This document shows, piece by piece, positions 314 to 3,153 of a DNA stretch of 32,000 bases; the stretch's first letter is position 1; each line of letters opens with the position of its first letter. Source of the DNA: Candidatus Heimdallarchaeota archaeon. Its GTDB lineage: Archaea; Asgardarchaeota; Heimdallarchaeia; Heimdallarchaeales; Kariarchaeaceae. Made by a program: the position numbers and the translations under genes. The notes below the pieces were generated by a model. The model was not told the origin of the DNA, ran no database searches, and saw only the letters and a program-made list of their open reading frames with translations. The stretch covers positions 637,119-669,118 of the forward strand of contig JASBSB010000006.1 in assembly GCA_030149205.1 (NCBI GenBank). The letters run 5' to 3'.

Positions 314-445
314 ATATTAAATTATGACTCAATAATATAAAGATTATCCTTAGCAAATTAAAACTAAAAGTTATCTGATTCAACTTTGAATTATTCAACA
401 CATTTCAACTTTAAAGGGGTTTAATGGGAGAGATTCAAAACAATC

Positions 446-453
446 TTTAAATG
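446..453 (+). promoter_or_regulatory. Candidate TATA box for the tRNA-Val transcript
   Basis: TTTAAATG ending 21 nt upstream of the tRNA 5' end, preceded by A-rich CAAAACAATC (BRE-like). Confidence 0.4.
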
Positions 454-474
454 ATTTTCATAGAAATCAAATTA

Positions 475-548
475 GGAACCATGGTCTAGCTTGGTATGAC
501 GTTGCCTTCACACGGCAAAGATCACGAGTTCAAATCTCGTTGGTTCCA
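475..548 (+). tRNA. tRNA-Val (anticodon CAC), intronless, CCA not encoded
   Basis: Complete cloverleaf. Acceptor stem GGAACCA(475-481)/TGGTTCC(541-547), discriminator A548. D-arm GTCT-AGCTTGGTA-TGAC. Anticodon stem TTGCC/GGCAA with loop TT-CAC-AC (CAC at 509-511). T-stem ACGAG/CTCGT with loop TTCAAAT. Confidence 0.96.
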
Positions 549-1385
549 TTGAAGTTTAGAGAGGAAGTAAGCCTTTATCTAAAAGAAGCTTACTCTCTTT
601 CAGAAAACACAATCAAAGGTTTCGGAATCCCAAAAGGGTTTCAAAGAACTGGTTCAATATTGATTTTACGATCAAACCATAAATTAGACGAAAGAATTGG
701 TGAAGCTTGTCTAAACATATATTCATGGACAACTGGGGTTTTTCAACATGTTTCGACTCAGACTGAGGGGAGAATACCAAAATTAATCTACTTGGCAGGT
801 CAAAGAAACACAGAAACCATACATATTGAAAACGGAGTAAAATATGTTTTAGACATTGAGAAAATTACGTTTTCCCAAGGTAACTCAAACCTTCGAAAAA
901 GATTAATAAATGAGGTTAATGATGGAGAAAATCTATTGGACATGTTTGCTGCAGTTGGTAATTTGAGTTTACAACCAATTCTATATAAAACAATAAACTT
1001 TCATTTGATTGAAAAACAACCTTACACGTACAAATTTCTTTTGAAAACACTGAAAATTAATGATGTAACCAGAGGAATTACCCAAAACATAGACTGTAGA
1101 GACATTACAATTAAAAATTGGGCAGACAGAATATTTATGGGATATCATGATGTGAATGAAGAGCATTTAACTTCTGCACTTAAAGCGTTAAAACAAAATG
1201 GAATAATTCACTTACATCCTCTCGTGAAAAACCATGATGTATCTGAATGGATTGAGTATTACTCTAAAATCATAGAAGCGAATAATTACAGTATAATAGA
1301 CGTAACAAGTTACACAGTCAAGAAATTTTCACCAGGATTAGAACATACGGAAATTCAATTCAAAGTTTCTTCTATCAAGGCTTAG
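549..1385 (+). CDS. taw2: Trm5/Taw2 (TYW2)-family SAM-dependent tRNA-modifying enzyme, most like Taw2 aminocarboxypropyltransferase
   Basis: Motifs HIENGVKYVLDIEKITFSQGN, DMFAAVGNLSL (SAM motif I), WADRIFMGY, GIIHLH and VKKFSPGLEH match the Met-10+/Trm5/Taw2 family. The track start (TTG 540) lies inside the tRNA. The next in-frame TTG is 549 and no in-frame ATG occurs in the N-terminal region. Confidence 0.75.
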   Translation: MKFREEVSLYLKEAYSLSENTIKGFGIPKGFQRTGSILILRSNHKLDERIGEACLNIYSWTTGVFQHVSTQTEGRIPKLIYLAGQRNTETIHIENGVKYVLDIEKITFSQGNSNLRKRLINEVNDGENLLDMFAAVGNLSLQPILYKTINFHLIEKQPYTYKFLLKTLKINDVTRGITQNIDCRDITIKNWADRIFMGYHDVNEEHLTSALKALKQNGIIHLHPLVKNHDVSEWIEYYSKIIEANNYSIIDVTSYTVKKFSPGLEHTEIQFKVSSIKA

Positions 1386-3153
1386 GAATGATTTGTTGAA
1401 CTATCTTTTGCAGTTCTGAACGAATGGGTTTTAGATCATGTATTCCGGATTTAGTGAGAGGAGATAAAACATTTAACTTTAAAGTTTGATTGACTATTCG
1501 ATTTAAACTTAAGTTAGCTGCAATTAAATTTCCTCTAAACACATAGATGAAAAGAAAGTCTGTCCCCTTTTTGTTCTCCGTTGTGAAAAACAGCTGCTTT
1601 GAAATTATTGTAAATTCACCATGCTGAATTAACTTTAAGTGTTGTTCATTCTTAAATATCTCTCTTCCAAAATCATTGAAGGCTCGAATAAAATTTCCAA
1701 TGAGCTTATCTGTATCACGACCAATGGGACTCTGAGAATATTGCAAATCAAAAATAACGCTCCCACCTGCATCGACTAGTATCACAAATATTGGTTTCTC
1801 AGTAAATAGTTGATCTGGGTGAACAAATAATCTTACAAAATCAAATGCCTGGTTAATTTGAAGAGTCCCTATTTCGAATTTTATGTTGCTATAATCTTTA
1901 TCTTGGGAGCTTAATAATTCCAACTGATTTTCAATAATTGGGCGAAGATAAGCAATATTATTTTTATTAGCTATCTTATTAGCTTCATTTACACTTTGGA
2001 TTGCATCTTTAAAAGACCCATCAATTAGATTAACCTTACTTTTAAGAATCAACGCTTGAATTGCAAAATCATAGGAATTATAGTTTATAGAACTCCTGTA
2101 AAGATTGTTAGCTGTGTCAATTATTTGAGAGATAGATTCTTGGGTTTGAAATAAAATATAATTCAACAACAATATCTCTGCTTTCGCAAAACTGGCTTTT
2201 ACCTGATACTGAAAAATTGTTCGATCATCTTCAATAAGGTCTACTAAGATTTGGTGTGCCTCTAAGATTTTAAAAAGATCTTTCTGTTCTTTTAACAACA
2301 AGGCACGAGTATAGTTATACCGAGTTATCGTGCTTGGATCCTTAAATTTGATTGCCAAATCATTAAATTTTTTAAGTTGTAATTCTGCTTTTTCAAATTC
2401 TTCTGAATTAATTAAAAATTCAATGTATGATGAATAGGCCCACCCTAGATAGTAGGCATTTTCAAGTTCAGTAAGCAAGCTTATAGACTTCTCAAAATCT
2501 TGGATAGCTAAGTCTTTCATTCCAATTTTCCAATAACAACTTGCAGAGTTCTCAAGTACACTAGCAAGGTAATTCAGATATGATTCTTTCTCAAAATACT
2601 CCTTTGCAGGGGTCAGATATTCCAAGGCTGATTTGTAATCACCTTTTGTCATTAGAAAATAACCAATATTATCATAACAAAGAAACACCCAAGCCTTATC
2701 CCCAATCGACTCGAAGGCACTTATTGCAATTTTATAATGCTTAATACCCTCAGAATACATTCCTGCAATAAAATAGTAAAGGCCATAGGCTTTGTTCAGA
2801 AGAGCTAATAAAAATGATTTTTCCATTGGATGAAGTTCATCGGATTTTGTGTTAATTAATTCTTCAAGTAATAAAAGTTGGTTATACACTTTAGGTTTAG
2901 ACCCACCACGTAGAGTGACATCGATTTTAAATGCCAAAGCAAAGAGATATTCTGGGGACGGAGGTTCATCTTCCAAACCAAAAAACATATCAATAGCAGT
3001 ATTAGCCTTAGTGAACTGCCCTTGCATTGAATGATAAATTATTTTGAGTAAGAGAGCTTTAGAAAGAGGGAAATCAAATGAATCGATTATAGATTCATCA
3101 ACTTCATTTCTTAGAAATCTCTTAAATAAACCTCTTTCTAACTTATCAAACAT
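1375..3153 (-). CDS. TPR-repeat protein with C-terminal longin-like domain
   Basis: Several TPR/SNAP-like helical repeats (YDNIGYFLMTKGDYKSALEYL; LENSASCYWKIGMKDLAIQDFEKSI). The C-terminal ~130 aa show a beta-beta-alpha-beta-beta-beta-alpha pattern (IFVILVDAGGSVIF; LIGNFIRAFNDFGREIF; LKLIQHGEFTII; FLFIYVF). Convergent 11-nt overlap with taw2. Confidence 0.7.
   Translation of the reverse strand: MFDKLERGLFKRFLRNEVDESIIDSFDFPLSKALLLKIIYHSMQGQFTKANTAIDMFFGLEDEPPSPEYLFALAFKIDVTLRGGSKPKVYNQLLLLEELINTKSDELHPMEKSFLLALLNKAYGLYYFIAGMYSEGIKHYKIAISAFESIGDKAWVFLCYDNIGYFLMTKGDYKSALEYLTPAKEYFEKESYLNYLASVLENSASCYWKIGMKDLAIQDFEKSISLLTELENAYYLGWAYSSYIEFLINSEEFEKAELQLKKFNDLAIKFKDPSTITRYNYTRALLLKEQKDLFKILEAHQILVDLIEDDRTIFQYQVKASFAKAEILLLNYILFQTQESISQIIDTANNLYRSSINYNSYDFAIQALILKSKVNLIDGSFKDAIQSVNEANKIANKNNIAYLRPIIENQLELLSSQDKDYSNIKFEIGTLQINQAFDFVRLFVHPDQLFTEKPIFVILVDAGGSVIFDLQYSQSPIGRDTDKLIGNFIRAFNDFGREIFKNEQHLKLIQHGEFTIISKQLFFTTENKKGTDFLFIYVFRGNLIAANLSLNRIVNQTLKLNVLSPLTKSGIHDLKPIRSELQKIVQQIIPKP

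Follow-up and report, generated by a model that had tools for sequence, protein, structure and literature searches.

A tRNA-Val(CAC) gene joined without spacer to the start codon of a taw2-type gene in a Heimdallarchaeota genome: a candidate case of tRNA punctuation

How can a protein-coding gene be expressed when its start codon directly follows the last base of a tRNA gene? This question is raised by a locus of a Candidatus Heimdallarchaeota archaeon, which lies in a window of 32,000 nucleotides (the whole stretch of DNA that was analysed) at one end of a contig of 669 kb in a metagenome-type assembly (3.3 Mb, 12 contigs, 93.5% complete), which its named homologs assign to Candidatus Kariarchaeaceae. 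An earlier sequence-only reading had proposed that the tRNA gene and the taw2-type gene behind it are co-transcribed, that RNase Z cleavage after the discriminator base releases a leaderless taw2 mRNA, and that, by this layout, tRNA processing and the expression of a tRNA modifier would be linked. Here we weigh these proposals against profile searches, ortholog alignments, promoter scans and a comparison with related genomes. The features of the locus are collected in Table 1.

Table 1. Features of the tRNA-Val(CAC)/taw2 locus, with positions in the window.
Feature	Position	Strand	Evidence and remarks
BRE/TATA promoter element AACAATCTTTAAATGA	439..454	+	genome-trained PWM, 9.0 bits
tRNA-Val(CAC)	475..548	+	ARAGORN; Rfam RF00005; CCA not encoded; discriminator A548
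Second in-frame TTG	540..542	+	inside the tRNA (nt 65-67), base-paired in T-stem/acceptor stem
Predicted RNase Z cleavage site	548..549	+	after A548; inferred from tRNase Z specificity (PMC4326828, PMC1920247)
taw2-type gene, 278 aa + stop	549..1385	+	TTG start 549-551; Pfam, NCBIfam, PDB, ortholog alignment
Stable hairpin, 13 bp interrupted	559..601	+	+11..+53 of the taw2 ORF

Anatomy of the junction and identity of the downstream gene

The tRNA, the only one that ARAGORN detects in the window, carries the anticodon CAC and matches Rfam RF00005 over the full model (1-71; 65.3 bits, E 2.8e-13, gathering score 29), with an acceptor stem GGAACCA/TGGTTCC and a discriminator, A73, that corresponds to A548. 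It is the only copy detected in the genome-wide tRNA lists, and a blastn search of the genome returned no second tRNA-Val(CAC). The acceptor stem is GGAACCA here versus GGGCTCG in relatives, a difference that may or may not reflect remodelling by the fusion, since the other tRNA-Val genes of this genome differ from the same-genus copies too. After A548 the taw2 frame begins at once with its TTG codon, the spacer being 0 nt, as the letters had suggested and as ARAGORN, Rfam and the ORF frame confirm. The 3' end of the tRNA thus lies against the start codon with no room for a promoter or a Shine-Dalgarno (SD) sequence, which is the abutment that characterises tRNA punctuation, and the predicted cut would generate both the 3' end of the tRNA and an mRNA 5'-phosphate end at U549.

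The placement of the start codon deserves attention, since the reading frame of taw2 is open upstream into the tRNA, where a second TTG is found, and no in-frame ATG occurs until about residue 133 of the ORF. Alignment of about 35 orthologs, drawn from 40 relatives and a collection of 5.8 billion proteins, revealed N-termini of the type M/V-[KR]-F-[KR]-[ED] that match TTG549-K-F-R-E-E residue for residue; same-genus orthologs begin M/V-P-x-F-R-E, and some orthologs start with GTG or TTG themselves. Moreover, the Pyrococcus Taw2 protein PH0793 (PDB) is also 278 aa long and colinear (query 27-273 corresponding to chain 26-275), and the public gene call (P0001, 278 aa) begins at 549. Together with PH0793, the ortholog alignment advised by the sequence-only reading thus pins the N-terminus to 549, within about three residues. 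Although the alignment by itself is compatible with a start at TTG540, this codon is an unlikely start because it has no upstream SD and is buried in the T-stem/acceptor stem. The last six tRNA bases (GTT CCA, 543-548) read as Val-Pro in the taw2 frame and resemble the way in which same-genus orthologs begin (GTG-CCN, V/M-P), a likeness that may be a coincidence or a microhomology trace of a rearrangement that formed the junction.

Taw2 moves the aminocarboxypropyl group of S-adenosylmethionine (SAM) onto imG-14 of tRNA-Phe, whereas the neighbour here is tRNA-Val(CAC), as had been pointed out and as our annotation upholds. The product of the gene matches PF02475 (TRM5-TYW2_MTfase; 114.8 bits, 5e-33, cut-off 28) and reaches 25.2 bits with PF25133 (TYW2_N_2), just below the cut-off of 27.7, so that it presents the TRM5/TYW2 fold and the TYW2 N-terminal domain without the D1 domain of Trm5b, as expected for a Taw2 protein of about 250-280 aa. 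Its matches to characterised Taw2 proteins outrank those to Trm5b and Trm5a, both among PDB entries (124.7 bits for PH0793 and 111.8 for MJ1557 versus 85 and 72 for Trm5b and 34 for Trm5a) and among NCBIfam models (133 and 126 bits for Taw2 versus 106 for Trm5b), even though the equivalog cut-offs of the Taw2 models, which were built on Pyrococcus and methanogen sequences, were not reached (133 versus 550 and 126 versus 350 bits). The only other PF02475 protein of the genome is Trm5b-like (345 aa, 209 bits), and this protein is accompanied by the wyosine partners Taw1 (Wyosine_form, 32.8 bits) and Taw3 (TYW3, 88.1 bits). From these profile matches, the gene is predicted to complete the wyosine pathway as its sole Taw2-type member and to catalyse aminocarboxypropyl transfer to tRNA-Phe. 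It also looks functional, because the ORF is intact, all clade-wide motifs are retained, and the Trm5b-like protein, Taw1 and Taw3 are present.

Two further observations concern the gene itself. The SAM-binding motif I (window positions 933-962, residues 129-138) reads DMFAAVGNLS versus DMFAGIGHLS in Pyrococcus Taw2, and an Ala (or Cys/Ser) replaces the first Gly of the GxG of this motif in all Heimdall orthologs (P0002-P0037). Besides, the 3' end of taw2 overlaps by 11 nt (1375-1385) the 3' end of a convergent gene that encodes a TPR protein of 592 aa (1375-3153, minus strand).

Signals for transcription, processing and translation

Given that a bacterial-type promoter and terminator scan is uninformative for an archaeon, we used instead a BRE/TATA position weight matrix (PWM) trained on the genome's own leaderless genes; its consensus is CAAAAACTTTAAATAG and its modal offset 36 nt. 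The element upstream of the tRNA ranks in the top 0.03% of the background, and transcription from it is predicted to begin at G475, where the tRNA itself begins; it is the one strong plus-strand match near the locus and the sole promoter ahead of the tRNA-taw2 unit. The upstream gene, which is divergent (GTG at 313, minus strand), served as a control: it has an element of 9.0 bits at 333-348 with a predicted start at 312, and this gene probably has a leaderless, GTG-initiated mRNA. No PWM score above 3 was found across 441-710 and none above -1.2 bits across 460-559, while the positions suited to transcription starting at 544-554 scored from -15 to -35 (background median -20, 99th percentile +1.8).

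These scores bear on the possibility that a cryptic promoter within the tRNA gene gives rise to a primary taw2 transcript, independently of processing. Promoters within coding regions and operons are reported to be common in archaea (PMC2710873), and the T-loop (TTCAAAT), as the most A/T-rich part of the tRNA, would be the obvious candidate; but the T-loop reaches only -4.3 bits and would have transcription begin near 558, past the start codon, the matrix maximum over 460-559 and the values for starts at 544-554 are those given above, and U549 is a poor initiating nucleotide (PMC7531240). We consider this possibility very unlikely. The sequence-only reading had itself named a promoter inside the tRNA as one outcome that would speak against it, and the scan shows nothing promoter-like there.

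The search for translation and termination signals was equally negative at this locus. The 3' end of the 16S rRNA (GGAUCACCUCCU) matches an SD-like motif that peaks at -14 to -10 in the genome, and none of GGAGG, GAGG or GGUG occurs ahead of 549 or 540. The claim that taw2 has no promoter or SD of its own downstream of the tRNA is hence borne out by both the PWM and the motif scans. The tRNA is not followed by an oligo-T terminator, and a T4 run first appears 116 nt downstream; the other tRNAs of this genome have such a run within 40 nt in 16 of 21 cases, the tRNAs of relatives have it within 10 nt in 59% of 80, and the tRNA-Val(CAC) genes of four relatives (G001, G003, G005 and G011) are followed immediately by T5-T6. 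As far as can be predicted from these scans, the tRNA promoter is the only visible route to taw2 transcription, the gene's own TATA box and SD both being missing.

A start codon without leader would be nothing unusual for this genome. In a set of 1688 ORFs, each with an upstream stop that tightly limits where the start can lie, a TATA-like hexamer is most frequent 28-30 nt ahead of the start codons, which defines a leaderless class. The hexamer lies 25-31 nt upstream of 29% of the constrained ATG starts, 33-45% of the GTG starts and 21% of the TTG starts, with control offsets giving about 8-12% (full sets) or 5-10% (stricter subsets), and only 8% of the constrained GTG starts genome-wide have an SD. 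Because the hexamer is enriched at the leaderless distance before ATG, GTG and TTG alike, leaderless initiation is predicted to be common in the genome, non-AUG codons included.

The processing side is also represented. A candidate RNase Z, near full length, is encoded at C4:260656-261525 (254 bits), and CCA is encoded by none of the detected tRNA genes. A nucleotidyltransferase of the class II bacterial/eukaryotic type was found at C7:81449-81868 (minus strand; PF01743, 111.8 bits, within a 538-aa ORF), no match to the archaeal class I CCA-adding enzyme was obtained in the genome with PF09249 or TIGR03671, and four archaeal control genomes showed the reverse pattern. Rfam and ARAGORN together detect 22-23 tRNA genes here versus 23-43 in more fragmented relatives; many of the detected genes carry introns, and further ones may be unusually interrupted or missed.

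The anatomy of the junction, with its single promoter and no other signals, is thus embedded in a genome that has the enzymes and the leaderless habit. These computed signals are best fitted by the co-transcription and the RNase Z-released leaderless mRNA put forward in the sequence-only reading, which we retain as a prediction and regard as modestly probable. tRNA-Val(CAC) and taw2 would form a single transcription unit driven by the BRE/TATA element, transcription would begin at or beside G475, and RNA polymerase would read through into taw2 because no oligo-T terminator lies behind the tRNA. RNase Z would cut after A548, as required for a tRNA gene without CCA, making the tRNA fit for CCA addition, and the same cut would yield an RNA beginning 5'-P-UUG AAG UUU (5'-P-UUGAAGUUU...). 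Co-transcription and the use of this cleavage product as an mRNA are predicted steps, and so is the last one, in which the ribosome would translate the released RNA as a leaderless message.

Several points count against this model. Among start codons UUG tends to be the weakest, and leaderless mRNAs with a 5'-monophosphate are not known to be translated in archaea. In addition, the first 60 nt of the taw2 ORF, which include the hairpin, fold with -15.4 kcal/mol, a value stabler than 98.9% of the 1688 ORF 5' ends, with z = -1.4 against shuffled sequences for the hairpin. The alignment places the hairpin in a stretch of roughly ten codons that is missing from most orthologs. The structure could hamper ribosome loading, which would count against the model, and it could also guard the 5'-phosphate end, attenuate read-through or be due to chance. 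Furthermore, some RNase Z enzymes, as in plant mitochondria, cut one nucleotide past the discriminator (PMC1920247), and such a cut at this junction would deprive the start codon of its U. In favour of the model, a review states that UUG is shunned at primary leaderless starts with a 0-nt leader, probably via the start preference of RNA polymerase (PMC7531240), so that a 5'-terminal UUG is more in keeping with processing than with transcription initiation.

The same co-transcription anatomy would also hold if taw2 were translated from unprocessed or partly processed read-through RNA at an internal UUG549 or UUG540, the RNase Z cut being then irrelevant or even destructive. Such an origin of the protein, which we rate as quite unlikely, gains from the in-frame position of TTG540 and from the Val-Pro at 543-548 that is shared in kind with the V/M-P N-termini of same-genus orthologs. 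However, neither codon is preceded by an SD-like motif, which the genome's SD genes show at -14..-10, UUG540 is paired within a well-folding tRNA, and the uncut precursors should be short-lived, since the cut at 548 is needed for a functional tRNA.

Rarity and origin of the arrangement

The conservation of the tRNA-Val/taw2 junction in related genomes, a check that had been suggested along with the original proposal, was not confirmed: the junction is absent in every relative examined, those of the same genus included. No tRNA was found within 1.5-2 kb of taw2 at 29 orthologs from the 40 relatives or at four of the closest database homologs, and none of the about 35 ortholog loci has a tRNA beside taw2. 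Within the genome itself the tRNA/start-codon junction concerns one of 22 tRNAs, and same-strand ORFs starting between -12 and +6 of a tRNA end were found neither at the other 21 nor at any of 80 distinct tRNAs sampled in 11 relatives of the family, 64 of these tRNAs being from the same genus. With one case in 22 here and none in 80 among the relatives, no systematic use of tRNA punctuation was found across the genome or the clade.

In the relatives, taw2 is neighboured by MT10, endA, PUA and NAC genes and is provided with a separate promoter, and an oligo-T terminator belongs to their tRNA-Val(CAC). In the present genome, MT10 and endA lie 14 kb upstream of taw2, the PUA and NAC genes are about 145 kb away, and the flanking genes share no synteny with the taw2 loci of the relatives. 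The displacement of the ancestral neighbours MT10 and endA by 14 kb points to a local rearrangement, which would have set taw2 directly behind the tRNA while displacing both the terminator of the tRNA and the promoter of taw2 itself. The layout therefore looks like a lineage-specific local rearrangement that captured a tRNA promoter rather than a conserved regulatory design. The notion that it ties the expression of the modifier to tRNA processing is not supported, because the junction is absent in relatives, where taw2 has its own signals, and because the substrate of Taw2 is tRNA-Phe, not tRNA-Val; confined as it is to this one lineage, the arrangement indicates no conserved regulatory circuit. 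The closest Taw2 homolog found among the 5.8 billion proteins is 54% identical, too distant to date the junction or to gauge selection on it or its conservation in a near relative, and the layout is a single instance. We also considered an integrative element as the origin of the junction and rejected it, as no att-like duplicate of the 3' half of the tRNA occurs in the genome.

The occurrence of the layout in this genome only raises a more sceptical explanation, namely that the junction stems from a recent rearrangement or from misassembly and that taw2, deprived of working signals, is silent or barely expressed and decaying. The ancestral neighbours 14 kb off, the metagenome-type assembly in 12 contigs, and the hairpin and UUG start, both of which point to weak expression, would agree with it. 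Yet an ORF of 278 codons that keeps every clade-conserved motif in a genome of 35% G+C is unlike decay, the gene is the only one of Taw2 type while Taw1, Taw3 and Trm5b are retained, and the join lies deep within the 669-kb contig, exactly on the start codon supported by orthology, with no repeat or att-like tRNA duplicate to mislead an assembler. We judge this explanation unlikely, and the reading in which RNase Z frees a taw2 message from a common transcript is the one compared below with known systems.

Comparison with known systems

The tRNA punctuation of animal mitochondrial transcripts was reportedly described by Ojala, Montoya and Attardi in 1981. As in animal mitochondria, the tRNA abuts a coding sequence and its excision would leave an mRNA that starts at the start codon. 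In those organelles, however, the arrangement organises the genome and is experimentally established, while here it concerns one of 22 tRNAs, involves a UUG start and is predicted from the sequence, and its host is a cellular archaeal genome of 3.3 Mb with ordinary promoters elsewhere. Mitochondrial leaderless mRNAs with processed 5'-phosphate ends are also mentioned in the literature on leaderless translation (PMC7531240). Plant mitochondria offer a further parallel, since their tRNAs and t-elements define mRNA 5' ends (PMC1920247) through an RNase Z cut at or next to the discriminator, as predicted for taw2; they differ in that they are organellar, in that most of their mRNAs keep long leaders and in that RNase Z may cut one nucleotide beyond the discriminator.

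Within the archaea, the tRNase Z of Haloferax volcanii makes the 5' end of 5S rRNA at a tRNA-like element, the haloarchaeal t-element ahead of the rRNA (Hoelzle et al. 2008/2012, cited in PMC4326828), and releases an engineered crRNA with a 5'-phosphate in vivo (PMC4326828). The taw2 junction resembles the t-element in that an archaeal tRNase Z cut on the 3' side of a tRNA-shaped RNA would set a downstream 5'-phosphate end. The t-element is, in contrast, a tRNA look-alike from which an rRNA or an engineered crRNA is released, whereas the present locus carries a real and probably essential tRNA from which the mRNA of a nuclear-type cellular gene would be released.

A limited literature search turned up no report of a free-living prokaryote in which RNase Z generates a leaderless mRNA. 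We tentatively suggest, giving it slightly less than an even chance, that this Asgard cell makes a leaderless UUG mRNA with a 5'-monophosphate by tRNase Z cleavage of a real tRNA, and that the hairpin may hold the message back or make it more stable, little enzyme then being made in spite of a strong tRNA promoter. Transcription initiation would hardly make such a 5' end. If this is true, mitochondrion-style tRNA punctuation would have arisen independently in a free-living archaeon, and archaeal leaderless initiation would require neither a 5'-triphosphate nor AUG. Confirmation at the RNA level would imply that RNA processing, besides transcription initiation, can make a translatable leaderless mRNA in archaea, that a 5'-monophosphate UUG end suffices for initiation, and that a gene deprived of its promoter by a rearrangement can be rescued simply by landing flush against a tRNA.

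A related arrangement is known in Thermococcus kodakarensis, where a tRNA-Lys is co-transcribed within the 159-nt 5'UTR of TK0306 (PMC4247193). As predicted for taw2, one promoter and one primary transcript serve an archaeal tRNA and a protein-coding gene; unlike TK0306, in which a leader is left between the tRNA and the start codon, the spacer at taw2 is zero, so that only exact processing would give a translatable end. The present genome may contain a second tRNA-mRNA co-transcript, with a leader (C2:491968-492516, minus strand): a tRNA at C2:492427-492516 (minus strand) is followed about 100 nt further on by a NAC gene on the same strand, and no T4 run occurs for 212 nt.
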